Below, in pieces: positions 14,301 through 64,000 of a stretch of DNA of 64,000 bases; the first letter of the stretch is position 1; each line of letters begins with the position of its first letter. Below the pieces are notes generated by a model. That model did no database searches, was not told where the DNA came from, and saw only the letters and a list, made by a program, of their open reading frames with translations. The translations under genes were made by a program, and so were the position numbers. Origin of the DNA: a virus (Duplodnaviria; Heunggongvirae; Uroviricota; Caudoviricetes); IMG/VR virus record IMGVR_UViG_3300027852_000034, positions 33,461 through 97,460 of that record. One strand, written 5' to 3'.

Positions 14301-14713
14301 CCCGTGATACTAAAGGCTGGATTATATCAATTACCCTCAGTATACTGGCTGCAGGTTTTGTACTGGCTATTGTAAAAATCATTTCAGACCATATGATCAA
14401 AACCGATAAAACCCTAGCATATTACGAGAATCATAAAGTTCGCAACTTGATTGTTCCAGCTAAATCAAAAGACGGAGTACCATTAGAAGTAACAATTGCA
14501 CACCCTGGTAAATTTAGTGAACAACGCACTTTACTGGTTAGGCGTATAGCTCGTCAAATAGCATCAGAGTTTGTATATAAGGATACAGTTTACGCAGAAA
14601 TTAAGCTTGAAAGGAAGCTAGAAAAGAAAAACATTCCAATTAACATAACCACCATCAAAAAACCACGTAAAGTTTATTTGTGTGACGAGCGTGGCTGTGA
14701 TTTCGTCAACTAA
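14297..14713 (+). CDS. membrane-anchored hypothetical protein
   Basis: ORF 138 aa, N-terminal TM helix. Confidence 0.55.
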   Translation: MTRDTKGWIISITLSILAAGFVLAIVKIISDHMIKTDKTLAYYENHKVRNLIVPAKSKDGVPLEVTIAHPGKFSEQRTLLVRRIARQIASEFVYKDTVYAEIKLERKLEKKNIPINITTIKKPRKVYLCDERGCDFVN

Positions 14714-14724
14714 GGAGAATTCAA

Positions 14725-15033
14725 ATGGGAATCTATATTAATCCTAGCGATACCTTAAAAGAAGATTGGTTACATGAGAATGCTACTAAAGAGCATGATT
14801 TTTTAACCCGTATTGTATGGAACAAAATTCCTAAAAATCATCTACCTGTCTGTCTAGTAGATAACGGAGCATTCACTGCTGCTGGTGTAGCTTTCAATGA
14901 AAAAGAATTTGATCATTTTGATGATCCTTCAGACAGACGTTTAAAACTTTGGTTCATAGTTGAAATTAAGAAACTTCTGGAAGTGCTAGATTCTAATGAT
15001 TGCGAATGTCTTTTGAAAAGACTAAAGGAGTAA
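14725..15033 (+). CDS. hypothetical protein
   Basis: ORF 102 aa, AAGGAGAATTCAAATG RBS. Confidence 0.55.
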   Translation: MGIYINPSDTLKEDWLHENATKEHDFLTRIVWNKIPKNHLPVCLVDNGAFTAAGVAFNEKEFDHFDDPSDRRLKLWFIVEIKKLLEVLDSNDCECLLKRLKE

Positions 15034-30449: not shown

Positions 30450-30560
30450 AGGCATCTAGTGTACGCTTCCGGAAATACCCAATACCGGGCCTCGCAAGGG
30501 CAGGAGTATCACGCAGCCGCAAGCTGAAAGTCAGGGTTCGACTCCCTGAGATGCCTACCA
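30450..30560 (+). ncRNA. tRNA-like small RNA (~110 nt) with 7-bp acceptor-like stem, T-arm and 3' CCA
   Basis: 5' AGGCATC pairs with 3' GATGCCT; CAGGGTTCGACTCCCTG T-arm; ends A-CCA; two CGCAAG hairpins internally; too long for a canonical tRNA; followed by terminator. Confidence 0.4.
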
Positions 30561-33002: not shown

Positions 33003-33671
33003 ATGACAACGGGGAATAACATGAGTAGTGATTGTAAAAAAGAACCAGAAGATGAATCTATTGCAGACTCTAAAGATAGAAAAACTCTTGCTACTGACTC
33101 TATTACAAATTTGTTAAAATTCGTAGGTGAAGATGTAACAAGAAACGGTCTTATTGAAACCCCTAAAAGAGTAGTTAAAGCCTACGAAGAATTGACCTGG
33201 GGTTTAAGGGTATCAGAAGATGAATTTTTCGACTCCATTGCGAAAGAGTTTGAACTTGCCTACGACCAAATGGTGGCAGTACGTTCTATTAGGTTTACCT
33301 CTATGTGTGAGCACCATTTGCTTCCTTTTATTGGTACTGCTACTGTCGCTTACATACCAGACGCGAAAAAGAATGGCATGGTAATAGGTATTAGCAAACT
33401 TGCTAGACTAGTAGAATATTATGCAGCTAGACCTCAAATTCAAGAACGTATGACCACTCAAATTGCAAAAGCATTAGAGACTTTAATGTCTCCGTTAGGT
33501 ACAGGTGTATGGATTGATGCTGTCCACACATGCATGTCTATCAGAGGTGTTAAAGCCGTGGGCGCCTCTACTGTAACCTCTGATTTACGTGGTGTGATAA
33601 GAGAAAATCCTGAAACTCGTAGTGAATTTTTATCCCTTGCAAGAAGTAACATGTTCCAAGGTATACAATGA
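33003..33671 (+). CDS. folE: GTP cyclohydrolase I
   Basis: [10 protein letters not shown] signature, LIETPKRV, length 222 aa. Confidence 0.8.
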
Positions 33672-34378: not shown

Positions 34379-35548
34379 ATGAGACGGATAATTTATTTAC
34401 CTCTTGAATCATACGAAGCACGATACACTAAACAACTATTGGATTGGAATGTAGATAGATTCAAAGAAAAAGAAATTCCATATATCTTGGTAGAAGGAAC
34501 TAGATTAACAGATGATGAGGATATAAATGTAGGCAAAGTTTTAGATGCACATGGACGTACATACTATTCGCTTACCCAAATAGCTAAATTAGTCAAACTT
34601 TTACAATCTGGAATAATCACTTACACAGATGTAATTTTTACTGAGGACATGTTCGCACCTGGTTACGAAGCACTTCCCTATATTTTTGAGCAACTTCCTG
34701 TTACACATAGACCCAGTTACTTTACCAGATGTCTAGCCCAATCTATCGACCCTGATGATTTCGTATTCCCCTGGCGAAATTGGATGCGCCATTATGAAAA
34801 ACTTGTAAGTACTACTGCTACAGGTATCATGATGGCTAATGATGCTATGGGATTACATATGGAAATTGCAATGGTAGATGATTGCCCTCTTTACGTTACA
34901 GGATTACCATTTGATAAAATTGAGGTTAGAAAACGCGCAGGGTACGTAACCTCTTTAAGAGCTAGAAAAAATCAAGTTATATTCAGTTCACGTTGGGATA
35001 CAGAAAAACAACCTGATTTCTACATGGATTTAATTGAGGCTTGTGCAGAAGAATGCCCTAAAATAGAGTTTTGCATATGCACAGGTAATAAAGAATTACG
35101 AAGCAATGACCGTACATATGTTCAACGTGCAAAGAAGTTGGAACAAGAAGGGAAGCTTAAAATTTATACAGGTCTTAAAAAGAATGAATACTACATGGTC
35201 CTTGCAGATTCAAAGGTACAGTTTAATTGTGCATTACAAGATTGGCAAAGCAACACACTGAATGAGGCTTCTGCTTTAGGTACTCAAAGTTTATGTCCAG
35301 CTTATAGATCTTTTCCACAAGCATTGAACAACAACAGTAAATATTTATATGTGCCCTGGTCTATTGCTGATGCAAAACAGAAACTCTTAGCGTTACTTGA
35401 TAATATTGAAGCAGATGATGATGTTTCATATCCTGCTGATGATCAGCATGAAACAATTAATCGTACTATAGATATTTTGATGGGTAACGGTTCTAAGTAT
35501 TTGTATAAACCTTACCATTATGAAACACCTGTTAAAGGTGCCGTATGA
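34379..35548 (+). CDS. hypothetical protein (389 aa) in 7-deazaguanine locus
   Basis: Long ORF; no PP-loop (not QueC); possible nucleotide/base-modifying enzyme; family not recognised. Confidence 0.55.
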   Translation: MRRIIYLPLESYEARYTKQLLDWNVDRFKEKEIPYILVEGTRLTDDEDINVGKVLDAHGRTYYSLTQIAKLVKLLQSGIITYTDVIFTEDMFAPGYEALPYIFEQLPVTHRPSYFTRCLAQSIDPDDFVFPWRNWMRHYEKLVSTTATGIMMANDAMGLHMEIAMVDDCPLYVTGLPFDKIEVRKRAGYVTSLRARKNQVIFSSRWDTEKQPDFYMDLIEACAEECPKIEFCICTGNKELRSNDRTYVQRAKKLEQEGKLKIYTGLKKNEYYMVLADSKVQFNCALQDWQSNTLNEASALGTQSLCPAYRSFPQALNNNSKYLYVPWSIADAKQKLLALLDNIEADDDVSYPADDQHETINRTIDILMGNGSKYLYKPYHYETPVKGAV

Positions 35549-35604
35549 TAATCTTAGGGCTTTCAATCCCGGCGATGTAGGTTCGATTCCTACCGGCACC
35601 TCCA
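35537..35604 (+). ncRNA. tRNA-like 3' fragment (acceptor stem + T-arm + CCA, no proper D/anticodon arms)
   Basis: GGTGCCG...GTAGGTTCGATTCCTAC-CGGCACC-T-CCA; overlaps last 12 nt of upstream CDS; 64-nt body too short for cloverleaf. Confidence 0.35.
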
Positions 35605-58510: not shown

Positions 58511-58556
58511 CATAGGTATAACTATTGCAAGTAAGCAAATATTATATATAATGTAA
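58511..58556 (+). promoter_or_regulatory. bipartite class-B promoter of Y-RNA array 1 (AGGTATAACTATTGCAAGT + ATATTATATATAATGTAA)
   Basis: Almost identical to the 61425 promoter; precedes first Y-RNA unit by ~20 nt. Confidence 0.6.
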
Positions 58557-58574: not shown

Positions 58575-58684
58575 GCAGAACCGAAGAGACTGGATTATCT
58601 ACTGACAAGAAGTACGGGCAATAGTAACAGTCCTTTATTGTTGAAAGACAATATAAATTAAACCAGTATCATAACTTGTTCTGT
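58575..58684 (+). ncRNA. Y RNA-like unit 0
   Basis: Closing stem CAGAAC/GTTCTG; CCGAA-GAGACTGG-ATTATC; 3' AACTTG; followed by T-run. Confidence 0.7.
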
Positions 58685-58699
58685 TTACTTTTTTGAATG

Positions 58700-58825
58700 T
58701 AGGGCCGAAGTAATTAGGTTATCACACACTGTGGTACGTAGGTTCGAATCCTGCCTCTTCTAACGAAGAGTGGTCGAGTGGTTAGACAATAGTCCAAAAT
58801 GCCTACTTACAACAACTTGCCTTAC
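58700..58825 (+). ncRNA. Y RNA-like unit 1 with embedded tRNA-half-like module
   Basis: Stem AGGGC/GCCTT (G-U); CCGAA-GTAATTAG-GTTATC; internal GTAGGTTCGAATCCTGC T-arm, CTCTTC-TAAC-GAAGAG hairpin, D-loop-like GTCGAGTGGTTAGAC; 3' AACTTG. Confidence 0.7.
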
Positions 58826-58841
58826 TACTAGTTTTAGAATA

Positions 58842-58974
58842 TAGGACCGAAGTAATTAGATTATCGCGGAGCTGTTATACATAGGTTCGAATCCTGTCTC
58901 CCCGACACTAACGGGGAGTAGCCGAGCGGAGCAGGCGGCAGCAATATAACTCTATTTGCAATCAACTTGTCCTA
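58842..58974 (+). ncRNA. Y RNA-like unit 2 with embedded tRNA-half-like module
   Basis: Stem TAGGAC/GTCCTA; CCGAA-GTAATTAG-ATTATC; T-arm ATAGGTTCGAATCCTGT; CTCCCCG-ACACTAA-CGGGGAG hairpin; 3' AACTTG. Confidence 0.7.
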
Positions 58975-59099
58975 TTTTATTTTATGAGATTTTTAAATGA
59001 AGTCGTATAAACTTTTACAAAATTATTTAGGATATCTCAGAACCTTTGCAATGAAAACTGGGACTCCTATAATCACTGCTACACAAAAAGAGGCTAGAA

Positions 59100-59413: not shown

Positions 59414-59499
59414 GCGGAGATGGCGGAATTGGTAGACGCAAGGGATTTAAAATCCCTCGATCTTAGATCGTGAGGGTTCAAGTCCCTCTCTCCGCACCA
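59414..59499 (+). tRNA. tRNA-Leu(TAA), CCA encoded
   Basis: Acceptor GCGGAGA/TCTCCGC; D-arm GCGGAATTGGTAGACGC; anticodon arm AGGGA-TTTAAAA-TCCCT; long variable arm; T-arm GAGGGTTCAAGTCCCTC; ACCA. Confidence 0.85.
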
Positions 59500-59794: not shown

Positions 59795-59869
59795 GCTCCA
59801 TTAGATCAGCGGTTAGATCCCAACCCTTTCAAGGTTGTAACTCCAGTTCGATTCTGGGATGGAGCACCA
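59795..59869 (+). tRNA. tRNA-Glu(TTC), CCA encoded
   Basis: Acceptor GCTCCAT/ATGGAGC; D-arm GATCAGCGGTTAGATC; anticodon arm CAACC-CTTTCAA-GGTTG; T-arm CCAGTTCGATTCTGG; ACCA. Confidence 0.85.
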
Positions 59870-60191: not shown

Positions 60192-60270
60192 AGGGGCATG
60201 GCGAAGCTGGCCTAACGCACAAGGTTTTGATCCTTGCATTTCGATGGTTCGACTCCATCTGCCCCTTCCA
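60192..60270 (+). tRNA. tRNA-Gln(TTG), CCA encoded
   Basis: Acceptor AGGGGCA/TGCCCCT; D-arm GGCGAAGCTGGCCTAACGCA (like E. coli tRNA-Gln); anticodon arm CAAGG-TTTTGAT-CCTTG; T-arm GATGGTTCGACTCCATC; TCCA. Confidence 0.8.
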
Positions 60271-60275
60271 ATTTA

Positions 60276-60346
60276 GGTGTTAGTAGCTTAATGGCAAAGC
60301 TGCTCCGAGCGGAGTGAAAAGGAAGTTCGATTCTTTCTCTAACACA
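60276..60346 (+). ncRNA. aberrant tRNA-like element (good acceptor, D- and T-arms; anticodon arm with 4-nt loop)
   Basis: GTGTTAG/CTAACAC acceptor; D-arm GCTTAATGGCAAAGC; GCTCC-GAGC-GGAGT hairpin in place of anticodon arm; T-arm GGAAGTTCGATTCTTTC; no CCA. Confidence 0.4.
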
Positions 60347-60349
60347 AGG

Positions 60350-60815
60350 TTTAACAAGGTGGGAATACTGGAACATTGGAGATGAAAGTATTCTTTAAGA
60401 CGGGTGCCGGAGCTGACCAGGTCGTTAAATATTGTTTCTCAGCTTACGCTCCTTCTCGTAATCGGTGTGAATCCGATCATCTTGACCCAGACAGCGGTGA
60501 ACCGGACATGGATTGAGGGATAACTTAGTGACACCTACAATTCACGGTTATGCACTAATGGCCAATCCTGCTTCAAGGTTTGAATCCTTGCACCGCTTAT
60601 TAAATGAGGATATATGCCCGAATCCCTGTATGGTTAAGACATATATTCAATAGTCCAGAGGACCACAGAACGGTGTATGTGGAGCTAAAGCCCTGTCGCT
60701 ATGAAACATACACTTGCCGTAAGGATTGGGATGTTCGAAGCCGGAACTGATCGAGGCTCAAACCTGGCAAGTAGGTGGAAAGCCTACACTTATTTAACAA
60801 TCCTTTAATTTTTTA
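60350..60815 (+). ncRNA. ~460-nt ORF-poor structured non-coding segment within the tRNA cluster
   Basis: Multiple stable hairpins (GAATACT...AGTATTC; ATCGGTGTGAATCCGAT; CAAGGTTTGAATCCTTG T-arm-like); AGCGGTG ... CACCGCT long-range acceptor-like pairing spanning ~115 nt; no ORF >=60 aa. Confidence 0.35.
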
Positions 60816-60825
60816 GAGGTGGAGA

Positions 60826-61294: not shown

Positions 61295-61369
61295 GCCAGC
61301 TTAGTTTAAGTGGTATAACAGTAGATTTGTAATCTTCCATCATCAGTTCGATTCTGATAGCTGGCTCCA
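61295..61369 (+). tRNA. tRNA-Thr(TGT), CCA encoded
   Basis: Acceptor GCCAGCT/AGCTGGC; anticodon loop TTTGTAA; T-arm ATCAGTTCGATTCTGAT; TCCA; one mismatch in anticodon stem. Confidence 0.65.
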
Positions 61370-61424: not shown

Positions 61425-61480
61425 CACAGGTATAACTATTGCAAGTTTAGAAATATTATATATAATATAAGTTATATAGT
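61425..61480 (+). promoter_or_regulatory. bipartite class-B promoter of Y-RNA array 2
   Basis: CACAGGTATAACTATTGCAAGT...ATATTATATATAATATAA, near-duplicate of 58511..58556. Confidence 0.6.
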
Positions 61481-61489
61481 GTTTTGAAA

Positions 61490-61583
61490 GATGAACCGAA
61501 TATTAAGGGTTATCGCCGATGAAAGTGGCTACATGCCATTTGTAGGTTCAACTCCTACACTCCTTAATGAATACTTGTTCATC
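61490..61583 (+). ncRNA. Y RNA-like unit 3
   Basis: Stem ATGAAC/GTTCAT; CCGAA-TATTAAGG-GTTATC; internal T-arm-like GTAGGTTCAACTCCTAC; 3' TACTTG. Confidence 0.7.
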
Positions 61584-61595
61584 CACAGATTTAAA

Positions 61596-61664
61596 TGATG
61601 AGCCGAATGCTGGTAGGTTATCTTTTTGGGAGCTAATCCCTACAAGCGCGTTACTTGCTCATTT
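61596..61664 (+). ncRNA. Y RNA-like unit 4 (minimal)
   Basis: Stem ATGAGC/GCTCAT; CCGAA-TGCTGGTA-GGTTATC; TTACTTG 3' block. Confidence 0.7.
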
Positions 61665-61678
61665 AATGTTTTAAAATT

Positions 61679-61805
61679 ACGGACCGAATTGGATTGGGTT
61701 ATCCATGCAAGGAGGATGTCAGGGGTTCGATTCCCTTCTTATCTGAAAAGATAAGTAGCTCAGTTGGCAGAGCGCCTAAACCCCAATCCTAAATAACTTG
61801 TCCGT
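61679..61805 (+). ncRNA. Y RNA-like unit 5 with permuted-order tRNA-like insert
   Basis: Stem ACGGAC/GTCCGT; CCGAA-TTGGATTG-GGTTATC; insert order T-arm (AGGGGTTCGATTCCCTT) - CTTATCT-GAAA-AGATAAG acceptor-like hairpin - TA - D-arm GCTCAGTTGGCAGAGC; 3' AACTTG. Confidence 0.7.
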
Positions 61806-61840
61806 ATATCATTTAAGAGGAGTTTAAAATTAAGGGCCGA

Positions 61841-61938
61841 ATTGTTATGGGTTCTCTGACTGTTTATCAGGCAATATGGGTTCGACACCCATCTAGTGTG
61901 TGGACATAGCTTCCCCCAAAACTAATAACTTGCCCTTA
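61841..61938 (+). ncRNA. Y RNA-like unit 6 with anticodon-arm(GTT)+T-arm module
   Basis: Stem TAAGGGC/GCCCTTA; CCGAA-TTGTTATG-GGTTCTC; TCTGA-CTGTTTA-TCAGG and ATGGGTTCGACACCCAT hairpins; TTCCCCC tract; 3' AACTTG. Confidence 0.7.
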
Positions 61939-61952
61939 TACCGTTTAAATAT

Positions 61953-62056
61953 ATGGACCGAATTTAATTAGGTTATCATTAGTTCGACTCTAATCTACTG
62001 CTTAGGTAGTAGAGCCCTATAGGTAGGGCACCCCTAGTTATATGCAACTTGTCCAT
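61953..62056 (+). ncRNA. Y RNA-like unit 7
   Basis: Stem ATGGAC/GTCCAT; CCGAA-TTTAATTA-GGTTATC; T-arm-like ATTAGTTCGACTCTAAT; CACCCCTAG tract; 3' AACTTG. Confidence 0.7.
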
Positions 62057-62065
62057 ATTGTTTTA

Positions 62066-62138
62066 TATGAGCCGAATGTGTTGGGTTATCTCTCGGACTT
62101 ACACTCTGATCACCCCCGATACAGATCACTCGCTCATT
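62066..62138 (+). ncRNA. Y RNA-like unit 8 (minimal)
   Basis: Stem ATGAGC/GCTCAT; CCGAA-TGTGTTGG-GTTATC; N8-GG pairs with CCCGATACA; CACCCCC tract. Confidence 0.7.
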
Positions 62139-62150
62139 TTAATTTGTAAT

Positions 62151-62215
62151 TATGAGCCGAATAGGTTTAGGTTATCCTTCTAAGATACCCCCTAGACCTG
62201 ATTAACTTGCTCATT
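62151..62215 (+). ncRNA. Y RNA-like unit 9 (minimal)
   Basis: Stem ATGAGC/GCTCAT; CCGAA-TAGGTTTA-GGTTATC; AGGTTTAGG pairs with CCTAGACCT; TACCCCC tract; CTGATT-AACTTG. Confidence 0.75.
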
Positions 62216-62228
62216 TTAAGTTGAAATT

Positions 62229-62295
62229 GTGAGCCGAAAAGTGCAGGGTTATCTAACCTTCCAATGAACCCCTGTCTCTGATTAACTTGCTCACA
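62229..62295 (+). ncRNA. Y RNA-like unit 10 (minimal)
   Basis: Stem GTGAGC/GCTCAC; CCGAA-AAGTGCAG-GGTTATC; AACCCCTG tract; CTGATT-AACTTG. Confidence 0.75.
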
Positions 62296-62308
62296 CATAT
62301 TTAAAATG

Positions 62309-62336
62309 AGCCTTGCAATTTTGCAGGGCTTTTTTG
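62309..62336 (+). terminator. rho-independent terminator ending Y-RNA array 2
   Basis: GAGCCTTGCAA-TT-TTGCAGGGCT hairpin + T5. Confidence 0.7.
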
Positions 62337-62357
62337 TGAAAGAAAGGAGAATCAAAA

Positions 62358-64000
62358 ATGGCTGCACCATATGGCGACATTACTTCTAAAAAGAAGACCG
62401 CACAATCTCAAGCTATCCCAGGTAGAGAAGCAGAGATGGAAAAAAACAACGCAGGTGGATACACCTTTTTATCTAATGATTGGGATCAATTACTGCGATT
62501 CCTTATCATCGGTTCCATAGGTGGGACATACTATGTGACTCAGAATAAACTGACTTTGGATAACACAAGCCATATCAAAGGACTTGTCAAAGAAGATGGA
62601 ATTCGGGTTGTCAATGAAGTTGTCCGTGTATCTGATGAAGGTTTAGCCCTGCGTAATGACCCTGCACTGTTTGTACTGGCAATATGTGCTGCTGATGGAA
62701 ATATAGATGTACGCCAGCATGCTTTAGAGAACTTACCTAAAGTAGCTAGAACTGCTACCCATCTGTTTACTTTTATCTCATATGTAAAAGAAATGAGAGG
62801 TTGGGGACGTGCGTTAAAGAACGCTGTAGCAAACTGGTATCAAAAACGTAAGGCTCCTAGCTTGGCATATCAGATTGTCAAGTATCGTAACAGAGAAGGT
62901 TTCACTCACCGTGACGTACTTCGGTTAACAAAGCCTAAGCCAAAGGATGATGAGCATGACTTCCTGTACGGCTATGCTGCTAACAAAGTAGTCTTTGATG
63001 ATGGTAAGTTTATCAAATCTGAAAAAGATGCTAAGGATACTGTAATTCAATTACCTGCAGGATTAGATATCATCAAAGGTGTCGAATTAATAAAGCAGGA
63101 AGGTTTGTCTCGTACTCAAGTAGTTAATCTGATTTCAGATTATAATCTGACACATGAGATGATTCCTAACGAGTACAAAGGTGAGCCTGTTGTTTGGGAA
63201 GCACTGTTAGAGCGTATGCCACTTACTGCTATGATTCGTAACTTAGGTAAAATGACATCTATAGGTCTTTTAAAGCCTATGTCTAATGCATCTAAGCTGG
63301 TTGTAAACAAGTTGCGTGACCAGGAATACTTGCAGAAAAGCAGAGTACATCCAATTGCTGTACTTATTGCATTAAAAGTATATGCAAACGGTGCTGGTAT
63401 TAAAGGTAGCTTGGCTTGGAATCCAGTCCAAACTATTAATGATGCTCTTGAAGGTGGATTTTATAAAGCTTTTAAGAATGTAGAGCCTACTGGTAAAAAT
63501 ACATTACTTGCATTGGATGTATCAGGTTCTATGGGTTGGAATGATGTGATGGGCATTAACTTTATGAAATGCTCTGAACTGACAGCAGCTATGGCTTTGG
63601 TAACCGCAAATGTGGAGCCTAACTATATGATCTTTGGGTTCTCTGATCGGTTTAAAGCGTTGGATATTTCTGCTTCTGACTCTTTGATAGACGCTACTAG
63701 AAAAGTAGCCAATCGTACATTCGGACGTACAGATTGTGCATTACCTATGGAGTACGCTAAGCAGCAAAAATTGGATGTAGATTCTTTCTTTATTTATACA
63801 GACAATGAAACTTGGGCTGGTCGTATTCAACCATCACAAGCTTTGATTGCATACCGCAAAAAGTCTGGTAATGATGCTAAGCTGGCAGTAATTGCAGCAG
63901 CAGCAACCCGCTTTACAATTGCAGATCCAAAAGATCCTGGTATGTTAGATGTCTGCGGATTCAGTTCAGATACACCCAAAGTGTTAAGCGGGTTGCTGCT
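62358..64000 (+). CDS. rsr: Ro60/Rsr ortholog: TROVE domain + C-terminal vWA (MIDAS DVSGSM); 3'-partial at window end
   Basis: GAAAGGAGAATCAAAAATG RBS; N-terminus QLLRFLIIGSIGGTYYVTQNKLTLDN...LRNDPALFVLAICAAD aligns with human Ro60 [26 protein letters not shown]...KQEPMLFALAIGCAAD; HRDVLRLTKPKP vs HKDLLRLSHLKP; MIDAS LALDVSGSM. Confidence 0.85.
   Translation, partial: MAAPYGDITSKKKTAQSQAIPGREAEMEKNNAGGYTFLSNDWDQLLRFLIIGSIGGTYYVTQNKLTLDNTSHIKGLVKEDGIRVVNEVVRVSDEGLALRNDPALFVLAICAADGNIDVRQHALENLPKVARTATHLFTFISYVKEMRGWGRALKNAVANWYQKRKAPSLAYQIVKYRNREGFTHRDVLRLTKPKPKDDEHDFLYGYAANKVVFDDGKFIKSEKDAKDTVIQLPAGLDIIKGVELIKQEGLSRTQVVNLISDYNLTHEMIPNEYKGEPVVWEALLERMPLTAMIRNLGKMTSIGLLKPMSNASKLVVNKLRDQEYLQKSRVHPIAVLIALKVYANGAGIKGSLAWNPVQTINDALEGGFYKAFKNVEPTGKNTLLALDVSGSMGWNDVMGINFMKCSELTAAMALVTANVEPNYMIFGFSDRFKALDISASDSLIDATRKVANRTFGRTDCALPMEYAKQQKLDVDSFFIYTDNETWAGRIQPSQALIAYRKKSGNDAKLAVIAAAATRFTIADPKDPGMLDVCGFSSDTPKVLSGLL

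Follow-up and report, generated by a model that had tools for sequence, protein, structure and literature searches.

A widespread phage RNA family in the tRNA cluster of a Caudoviricetes genome, and the tRNA-like elements beside it

What lies in a stretch of a phage tRNA cluster that is overlapped by no open reading frame (ORF) longer than 54 aa on either strand? The question is raised by positions 60347-60815 of a 64,000-nucleotide (nt) piece of DNA from a Caudoviricetes virus (IMG/VR record IMGVR_UViG_3300027852_000034, positions 33,461 to 97,460), which was analysed as a whole and is called the window here. A first-pass annotation, made from the sequence alone, had described an aberrant tRNA-like gene followed by a structured segment without ORFs, and the absence of ORFs was confirmed. 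In this study, we found in the 3' 200 nt of the ORF-free segment a single discrete, widely conserved RNA gene that the annotation did not contain. This element (60600-60798, plus strand), referred to as unit 4 or the family RNA, belongs to a large phage-specific RNA family with a covariation-supported fold. It is preceded by three tRNA-like units (units 1-3), the 5' neighbour of the whole string being tRNA-Gln(UUG) (60192..60270, plus strand; called by ARAGORN, Rfam tRNA 52.5 bits, CCA encoded).

The first lead came from a blastn search of the region against GenBank phages, in which the single non-tRNA match was to Aeromonas phage TSW001: positions 60616-60799 share 71% identity with a 412-nt gap that separates tRNA-Tyr from tRNA-Ser in that phage and has no annotation, and the alignment consists of identity blocks split by indels and by stems with compensatory changes. 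The TSW001 gap itself matches Aeromonas phage phiA8-29 and, over one hairpin, Serratia Miltonvirus phages, and all of these matches fall in unannotated parts of tRNA clusters. A search pattern taken from the shared hairpin loop, GCCCGAATCCCnnTnTGGTnAAGAC, used as such or relaxed at one position, was found in 35 IMG/VR viral contigs, in at least 80 metagenome contigs and in 4 of 185,579 species-representative genomes, all four being metagenome-derived assemblies and three of them labelled as metagenome-assembled genomes (MAG). These three scans gave 88 distinct copies. A blastn search of GenBank phages with a 54-nt query returned 169 records, a few of them chance matches, and about 160 cultured phage records carry the family RNA, nearly all without annotation at the match. 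Two other probes were uninformative: the exact 16-mer ACTTGCCGTAAGGATT gave 11 matches in IMG/VR, all of them chance occurrences within coding regions, and the gapped pattern GACCACAGAA...TTGCCGTAAGG, aimed at the variable insert and not at the core, gave no matches.

Nearly all of the 169 GenBank records are Ackermannviridae (Kuttervirus, Limestonevirus, Miltonvirus, Tedavirus and Ag3-like phages), the remainder being ~80-kb Acinetobacter baumannii phages, Vibrio phage YC and N4-like Gamaleyavirus, and the matches in Acinetobacter, Gamaleyavirus, Kuttervirus and Miltonvirus phages were verified as full-length or partial. Complete copies are present in Aeromonas Ackermannviridae, in A. baumannii phages, in an N4-like coliphage and probably in Vibrio phage YC, while the hairpin module formed by helix P1 and its near-invariant segment L1 occurs in Kuttervirus, Limestonevirus and Miltonvirus; in Kuttervirus and Miltonvirus this module alone matches and is followed by a rearranged 3' part, with UGGAAAG directly after P1. 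In Salmonella phage SFP10 (L136), Acinetobacter phage fJoAci01 (L137), Escherichia phage KKP 3715 (L138) and Serratia phage phiMAM1 (L014), the family RNA or its P1-L1 hairpin lies beside tRNAs in gaps that measure at least 1.4-1.9 kb, are poor in ORFs and carry no annotation; further unannotated RNAs are probably present in these gaps. Copy lengths cluster at ~160, 180 and 210-270 nt, classes that are due to a replaceable central domain, and the GC content of the motif region ranges from 38% to 68% across carriers.

The fold of the family RNA runs, in order, through P1 with L1, a junction AAUAGU, a 4-bp helix P2 around the central domain, a junction CAAG and the P5 hairpin. A covariance model of it, R1, was built from ten minimal members with a hand-derived structure, and the window copy is a full-length member of the long-insert 'type B' that scores 78.4 bits (E~1e-20) over model positions 1-145, with all elements of the model in order (J1/2 AAUAGU, 4-bp P2, CAAAC, CAAG, loop UGNAAWG). 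In alignment A4, comprising 81 sequences fitted to R1 and ascertained by the L1 pattern, 91.2% of cells are paired against 56.0% in shuffled controls and 34-45% when the 3' partners are slid, 26 of 28 pairs show changes on both sides, and 690 compensatory cells stand against 186 expected. Alignment A2, in which 22 sequences were aligned by MAFFT alone and not fitted to the model, gave 82.2% paired cells, against 57.3% shuffled and 32-42% slid, and P1, P2, P5 and the central hairpins emerge independently from RNAalifold on eight type-B members. G.U pairs are present on the given strand. The segment had been described as full of strong local hairpins; its whole 469 nt fold at z=-0.15 relative to shuffles, which is the chance level. 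The evidence for structure comes from covariation and not from folding energy.

In the window, P1 and L1 occupy 60609..60647 (plus strand), with P1 at 60609-60616 paired to 60640-60647 and L1 at 60617-60639. P1 is about 9-10 bp long in the family and 8 bp in the window copy, and 9 of its 10 pairs show compensatory changes. The 23-nt L1 reads CCCGAAUCCC-UGUA-UGGUUAAGA in the window copy and is invariant across the 81 aligned sequences, which were themselves ascertained by L1; window positions 60616-60640 match GCCCGAAUCCC-NNNN-UGGUYAAGAC exactly, with U-A as the first and last bases of the tetranucleotide (N1/N4). Across the family N1 and N4 are 100% complementary with five pair types, including U-A 46, G-C 27, C-G 5 and A-U 2. 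On the other hand, the complementarity of N2 and N3 in this quasi-palindromic tetranucleotide (75%) equals the 73% expected from base composition, and a kissing dimer through it was rejected. Divergent members, gathered by a looser pattern and from a related contig, carry A-U in place of G-C at L1 positions 19-43, G-C or C-G in place of C.A at 20-42, with both sides changed, and U in place of C at position 22, opposite A40. Because of these two-sided changes, L1 probably does not form an open loop but extends P1 irregularly, containing a GAAU/UYA internal loop and two C.A mismatches that are conserved.

Junction J1/2 (CAAUAGU, 60648..60654, plus strand) is defined by column conservation in A4 and leads into P2 and the central domain (60655..60767, plus strand). 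P2 pairs CCAG at 60655-60658 with CUGG at 60764-60767; all 4 of its pairs covary, with 97.7% of cells paired. The central domain is variable, starts with UGG...ACC and ends in a conserved CAAAC (60759-60763), and in the window it holds a long hairpin (60671-60680 / 60706-60715), a GUAA hairpin (60717-60724) and an AGCC/GGCU helix (60739-60742 / 60755-60758); these central hairpins come from the RNAalifold structure of the eight type-B sequences, in which 23 of 42 pairs show compensatory changes. One of two motifs previously described as T-arm-like, GGATGTTCGAAGCC, turned out to be part of a conserved GAAGCC...GGCUC helix of the long-form central domain and is not a T arm. The 3' part, junction CAAG with the P5 hairpin (60768..60787, plus strand), has P5 at 60771-60775 / 60783-60787 closing the 7-nt loop UGGAAAG, and covariation is seen in 5 of 6 P5 pairs. 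Within the loop, the second G (G60778) also covaries, over a long range, with the last C of CAAAC (C60763), the counts for this tertiary pair being C-G 56, U-A 6 and G-C 5.

Is this RNA already known under another name? At gathering thresholds, Rfam 15 (4,227 models) reported tRNAs alone in the window and in 12 family loci, and at E<=10 nothing relevant overlapped the family RNA in the window or in a minimal member. No description of the family was met in the full-text literature searched with core sequence strings and topical terms, while the 10,006 unnamed candidates of PMC10690425 could include it. On the comparative evidence, the family is previously uncatalogued (Rfam 15), very widespread and strongly supported in its structure. 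Infernal against all of Rfam left no known family that explains the region beyond the tRNA-like unit 1, and group I and II introns, tmRNA, RNase P and 6S RNA gave no Rfam match at E<=10, nor did ARAGORN find a tmRNA. Two resemblances were pursued and given up: a likeness to the 5' end of E. coli M1 RNA (AGCUGACCAG) plus CCAC-ACAGAA, in which ACAGAA falls in a subtype-specific insert and for which RNase P has no Rfam match at E<=10, and a resemblance to a group I intron S-element (AAUAGUCC), for which no intron model matches and the core is too small.

It had been proposed that the segment is an intron-containing tRNA or a self-splicing element, and a coding function for a small peptide may be considered with it. 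Ends of tRNA-like sequence do bracket insertions of 100-135 nt, and a WUG triplet lies 5' of P1 in 53 of 81 members. The insertions are nonetheless too short for group I or II cores, no Rfam intron model matches at E<=10, and flanking exon halves and an anticodon-stem context are both lacking. As for a peptide, the reading frame either shifts from member to member or soon runs into a stop, a Shine-Dalgarno sequence at the proper distance is lacking, covariation in P1 scrambles the putative product, and L1 is invariant at all three codon positions, wobble positions included, over the full range of GC content. We regard this explanation as barely credible: the element at 60600-60798 is an RNA, and not an intron, tRNA, Y RNA or peptide gene.

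The exclusion of a Y RNA draws on the wider layout of the window, in which the tRNA operon is flanked by two blocks of Y-like RNA genes and lies upstream of a Ro gene, the family RNA being inside this Ro/Y island both here and in a related contig (L139). The rival suggestion that the segment is part of the Ro/Y system, as extra Y-like RNAs or Ro substrates, can point to at least 10 Y-like genes flanking the cluster, to a Ro ORF from ~62358, to L139, where the family RNA is kept between Y-like RNAs and Ro, and to CCGGA(N)...GG motifs in units 2 and 3 that recall the Y 5' strand as seen in L139. L1 (CCGAAU...GGUUA) also has a superficial likeness to a Y 5' strand; in Y RNA, however, that strand belongs to a long terminal stem and pairs with AACUUGYCC, whereas L1 is an irregular hairpin extension closed by P1. 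The Y hallmarks, 5' GGNCCGAA and 3' AACUUGYCC, are missing from the family RNA, the latter from all of units 2-4, and YrlA (RF02553) has no match in 60347-60815 at E<=10. Unlike the Y RNAs of the island, the family is not linked to Ro elsewhere: 135 other loci, nearly all fetched for the family motif, yielded one single Y-like 5' strand and one weak Ro-like match, and no Ro stands beside the RNA in Ackermannviridae and the other carriers examined. Ro/Y membership of the segment, listed as one possibility in the first-pass annotation, is highly improbable, and for 60600-60798 it is not supported. The Y RNAs share the island and likewise combine tRNA-like modules with other RNA domains.

The island itself deserves some description. 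Its Y-RNA-like genes (58578-58985 and 61493-62340, plus strand) carry GRRCCGAAK...RGGUUAUC at the 5' side and AACUUGYCC at the 3' side, several with permuted tRNA-like modules; only the one at 61680-61807 approaches the Rfam YrlA model, with 40 bits against a cut-off of 69. Rfam tRNA matches with 76-nt 'insertions' (58764-58905 and 61749-61900) arise because the D-arm half of one unit is joined to the T-arm half of the next. The Ro/TROVE-like ORF (62358-64000, plus strand) runs off the window end and has blastn matches to Streptomyces phage genes for a 'Ro-like RNA binding protein', and relatives of the window phage have TROVE or RtcB at the Ro position.

These relatives were reached through the SNF2 helicase gene 2 kb upstream, for which a locus search of IMG/VR gave no close relatives and a protein search gave relatives at 48-58% identity, with a conserved gene order of Metallophos, 5'-3' exonuclease, DnaB and SNF2. 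The contig L139 (helicase 52% identical), which has no tRNAs, is the only one among them with the family RNA (14569-14795, 64 bits), and another, L141, whose helicase is 48% identical, has RtcB and shares all four tRNA species with the window. The family RNA is thus kept in the RNA island of the lineage, and units 1-3 are not. Next to its family RNA, L139 also has a tRNA-like RNA (14804-14935, plus strand) with acceptor GCGGUGGG, D arm and T arm GUGGGUUCGAAUCCCAC, in which a Y-like module, GAGCCGAAUAGGUUGGAUUAUC, stands in the place of the anticodon arm, forming a non-permuted tRNA/Y hybrid. Inteins or LAGLIDADG homing endonuclease domains occur in the replicative and SNF2 helicase genes of relatives (P0004, P0006, and the DnaB-like genes of L139 and L143), and the window copies of both genes are intein-free.

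What, then, does the family RNA do? Across the family, a same-strand tRNA lies within 1.5 kb in 43 of 88 copies and an opposite-strand tRNA in none of the 88, and in 17 of 88 a tRNA ends 14-29 nt before L1, that is, a few nt from the 5' edge of the RNA, where genuine tRNAs take the position held by unit 3 in the window. No neighbour protein recurs, the largest cluster in an all-against-all comparison of 1,693 neighbouring ORFs being found at 4 of 88 loci, and the downstream genes are mutually unrelated (ThyX-like, terminase-like, assorted small ORFs, or a tRNA). Accordingly, no gene for a dedicated protein partner and no dedicated target gene lies near the family RNA, which is preferentially associated with tRNA genes. 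We lean towards an autonomous, compactly folded trans-acting RNA that may engage a component which every bacterial host possesses, with the tRNA or translation apparatus as the most plausible candidate, since it needs no co-encoded protein, keeps its core sequence from 38% to 68% GC and moves with tRNA genes.

Two rivals compete with a trans-acting RNA, the main one being a self-cleaving ribozyme. Its cut, at or near the conserved 5' edge with its WUGAG, would detach the upstream tRNA or mRNA from the genes that follow, so that the message of these genes would begin with a structured 5' cap. Sequence upstream of the family RNA is unconstrained up to its conserved 5' boundary, a start codon often follows 13-40 nt downstream, the RNA is intergenic, co-directional with its neighbours, independent of host type and autonomous, and its near-invariant nucleotides sit in junctions and in a helix of irregular form, its peripheral domains being replaceable and the two conserved C.A mismatches becoming Watson-Crick pairs in variants. 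Against cleavage, no Rfam 15 model matches over its cut-off, which leaves no known ribozyme class, a length of 145-270 nt exceeds that of most small self-cleavers, and copies directly before tRNAs would not need a ribozyme, as RNase P cuts there; we judge it distinctly unlikely.

The next rival, a cis-acting 5' leader (riboswitch or protein-binding), would in the window serve the ORF at 60819/60825-60968, directly 3' of the family RNA. In roughly half of 27 copies examined an ORF does start within ~40 nt of P5, the fold is compact with conserved unpaired bases, and P5 with its U-rich tail scores as terminator-like in the window. Yet short intergenic distances are normal in phages, the downstream genes are heterogeneous and in several copies are tRNAs, no conserved expression platform was found, and the fold does not include the Shine-Dalgarno sequence of the window ORF; we judge a leader very unlikely. 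The ORF in question (plus strand, 47-49 aa) has a weak likeness to ribosome modulation factor (Pfam RMF E=1e-4, 22.6 bits, under the 27.9-bit cut-off).

The second part of the question concerns the 320 nt between tRNA-Gln and the family RNA. Unit 1, an anticodon-less tRNA-like RNA (60277..60346, plus strand), is the aberrant tRNA-like gene of the first-pass annotation, and it is real: ARAGORN calls a 'tRNA-???' with a 2-nt 'anticodon' at these positions, and the minimum free energy (MFE) structure is a cloverleaf with z=-2.1. Against the Rfam tRNA model (RF00005) it scores 27.4 bits, below the 29-bit gathering cut-off. It has the 7-bp acceptor, a D arm GCUU/AAGC with GG in its loop, and the T arm GGAAG-UUCGAUU-CUUUC, thus the D arm with G18G19 and the UUCRANY T-loop expected of a tRNA, and it keeps U8 and A14 as well. 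What it lacks is the 7-nt loop with an anticodon, the anticodon stem GCUCC/GGAGU being capped by the 4-nt GAGC, and it has no encoded CCA. Unit 1 is an L-shape-competent tRNA body minus the anticodon loop.

Units 2 and 3 are assigned tentatively as elongated tRNA-like elements. In unit 2 (60355..60489, plus strand), of which neither helix was noted in the first-pass annotation, an acceptor-type helix pairs CAAGGTG at 60355-60361 with CATCTTG at 60478-60484, a T-arm-like hairpin ATCGG-TGTGAAT-CCGAT with the loop UGUGAAU lies at 60461-60477, the 3' tail is ACCCA, and two long hairpins stand where the D and anticodon arms would be expected, the MFE structure being a four-way junction. In unit 3 (60493..60597, plus strand), the other motif described earlier as T-arm-like, CAAGGTTTGAATCCTTG (60574-60590), proved genuine; its loop is UUUGAAU, and directly 3' of it CACCGCT (60591-60597) pairs with AGCGGTG (60493-60499) to form a 7-bp closing helix that is present in the MFE structure (z=-2.14). 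Unit 3 has no encoded CCA and ends 2-3 nt 5' of the family RNA. Neither unit gave a tRNA or YrlA match, or any Rfam match at E<=10 over 60353-60600.

In each of these two units, a 5-bp hairpin with a 7-nt T-loop-like loop is followed directly by a 7-nt strand that pairs 100-130 nt upstream, which is the geometry of a tRNA T arm stacked on its 7-bp acceptor helix. Such composites number 8 on the plus strand of the window against 0.4 expected per strand from shuffles (maximum 4 in 200 shuffles), a ~20-fold enrichment, and the eight are five called tRNAs, units 2 and 3 and an element at 30451-30555; when the T-loop constraint is dropped, the composite geometry becomes common by chance. Units 2 and 3 carry a tRNA T-arm/acceptor minihelix on otherwise unrelated bodies, and the earlier suggestion of degenerate tRNAs fits 60277-60597, as one anticodon-less cloverleaf and two elongated T-arm/acceptor units. 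The additional element (30451-30560, plus strand, ~105 nt), a third elongated tRNA-like one that lies far from the cluster, has the acceptor GGCAUCU/AGAUGCC, a UACCA tail and a perfect T arm, CAGGG-UUCGACU-CCCUG, and was called by neither ARAGORN nor Rfam.

Unannotated elongated or aberrant tRNA-like elements also stand beside the family RNA in Ackermannviridae. They precede it in TSW001 and phiA8-29, and in the latter (L013) an unannotated 153-nt Rfam tRNA match at 582-734 (35.2 bits, over the cut-off) suggests a tRNA with a long insertion.

Units 1-3 are plausibly tRNA-derived scaffolds serving as processing handles or decoys, or else decaying tRNA genes. In mascRNA-type signals and in mitochondrial 'tRNA punctuation', tRNA-shaped elements whose anticodon loop is defective or missing bring in RNase P and RNase Z, which define the ends of a neighbouring non-coding RNA. 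Unit 1 and the minihelices of units 2 and 3 would fit such a role by analogy, the known systems being eukaryotic or organellar. With moderate confidence, we propose that four non-coding RNA genes are closely packed on one strand in 60277-60798, forming an array that continues the tRNA operon, is processed from it and ends in a trans-acting RNA; the general idea of additional regulatory or non-coding RNAs thus survives from the first-pass annotation. The four units would be co-transcribed with the tRNAs and cut by host tRNA-processing enzymes, with RNase P acting 5' of each tRNA-like minihelix and RNase E, RNase Z and exonucleases on the 3' side, and the upstream tRNA or tRNA-like unit would set the 5' end of the family RNA. 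Some copies may use their own promoter instead, as suggested by a promoter-like TTGACT-N17-TATAAT just upstream of one copy (L043).

Several observations weigh against this proposal. Co-transcription and processing are deduced from the spacing of 2-8 nt between the four units, their common strand and the absence of a promoter-like site directly upstream, the nearest fitting sites being at 59045/59046. For about half of the copies, the DNA examined shows no tRNA, hence the linkage is not obligatory, and in L141 the family RNA was not in the DNA fetched and nothing follows tRNA-Gln. A possible closing helix P0 (60601..60796, plus strand; 60601-60608 UAAAUGAG / 60789-60796 CUUAUUUA, 8 bp in the window copy) that would enclose the family RNA has no family-wide support, the mean best helix being 4.53 against 4.31+/-0.11 with swapped partners and 51% of cells being paired. 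The tRNA or translation target is weakly suggested by the genomic context and by the invariant UGGU of L1, a potential partner of a 3' ACCA; for UGGU, an internal partner, the ACC of the conserved GGCUACC, is just as possible, and the bases concerned do not vary. Finally, searches of phage, viral and related-contig DNA gave no homologues of units 1-3, the folding of unit 2 is at the level of shuffles (z=+0.23), and given the lack of homologues and the bare stretch after tRNA-Gln in L141 the three could be decaying tRNA genes.

The last points lead to a further rival, in which 60277-60597 consists of functionless decaying tRNA pseudogenes or duplicates and the family RNA is the sole real gene. 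It would also account for the missing CCA of units 1 and 3, unlike the four cluster tRNAs, which all encode it. However, unit 1 keeps every tRNA tertiary-interaction base and four stems, which is unlike random decay, composites of T arm and acceptor are far over chance, comparable elements accompany the family RNA in Ackermannviridae, and 320 nt of junk is rarely kept in phage genomes. We consider decay somewhat unlikely.

A more novel function can be imagined, although we hold it to be speculative and fairly unlikely: the family RNA may be a new functional class of phage RNA that works on its own, either a new self-cleaving or processing ribozyme that punctuates tRNA-containing transcripts or an RNA that docks on the 3' CCA or elbow of tRNAs and protects, sequesters or reprograms them, with the anticodon-less neighbour as decoy or handle. 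In the docking version, contact would be made through the invariant UGGU and the irregular L1 helix. The T-box antiterminator bulge (UGGN) and L15 of RNase P (GGU) both pair with the 3' NCCA of tRNA. The complementarity of the invariant UGGU to ACCA, in a tRNA-rich context, recalls them and may serve as a lead; there is no homology between either and the family RNA, which has no equivalent of the specifier or the S-domain.

Other phage RNAs offer parallels in context. GOLLD and ROOL are structured RNAs of phages and prophages, often close to tRNA islands and with no known protein partner (PMC12286853). Like GOLLD (RF01998) and ROOL (RF03087), the family RNA is phage-encoded, found near tRNA islands, without a partner protein and built of a conserved core with variable regions. 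However, neither model has an Rfam match in the window or in 12 family loci, the family RNA measures 145-270 nt against about 580-800+ nt, and GOLLD and ROOL form homo-oligomeric cages. The quasi-palindromic L1 tetranucleotide gives no statistical support for kissing dimers. T4 species 1 and 2 (rnaC and rnaD) are small stable RNAs that end the T4 tRNA cluster on the same strand, and rnaC (species 1; L135 3909-4172, minus strand, rnaC/rnaD) itself ends in a canonical T arm, CCGGGUUCGAAUCCCGG, so it resembles units 2 and 3 in design, not in sequence. R1 has no match in the T4 tRNA region, rnaC and rnaD lack the L1, P2 and P5 signature, and homology to them was rejected.

Islands of tRNA genes in phages are currently regarded as modules for counter-defence and for the takeover of translation, and they also hold orphan RNAs (T4 species 1 and 2, GOLLD and ROOL) whose roles have been open for decades. 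The family RNA adds a further orphan that is much smaller and very widespread, with a defined fold, a 23-nt near-constant core and no co-encoded protein. It is unannotated in well-studied cultured phages, thus its function can be tested directly in cultured hosts, and it explains part of the 0.5-1.9 kb 'empty' gaps beside phage tRNAs, which makes it worth adding to annotation pipelines.

A few features of the window remain to be recorded. The plus-strand tRNA cluster comprises, by ARAGORN and Rfam, Leu-UAA at 59414, Glu-UUC at 59795, Gln-UUG at 60192 and Thr-UGU at 61295, with small ORFs scattered between the tRNAs. Three promoter-like sites of the identical type TTGCAA-N16-TATAAT lie on the plus strand at 58525-58552, 59046-59073 and 61439-61466 and are candidate promoters for the Y-RNA and tRNA blocks; overall, promoter-like sites are no more numerous in the window than in shuffles. 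A second tRNA-Glu(UUC), isolated and 24 kb from the cluster, is found at 35537-35604 (plus strand); it is 68 nt long and scores 31.7 bits with Rfam, barely over the cut-off.

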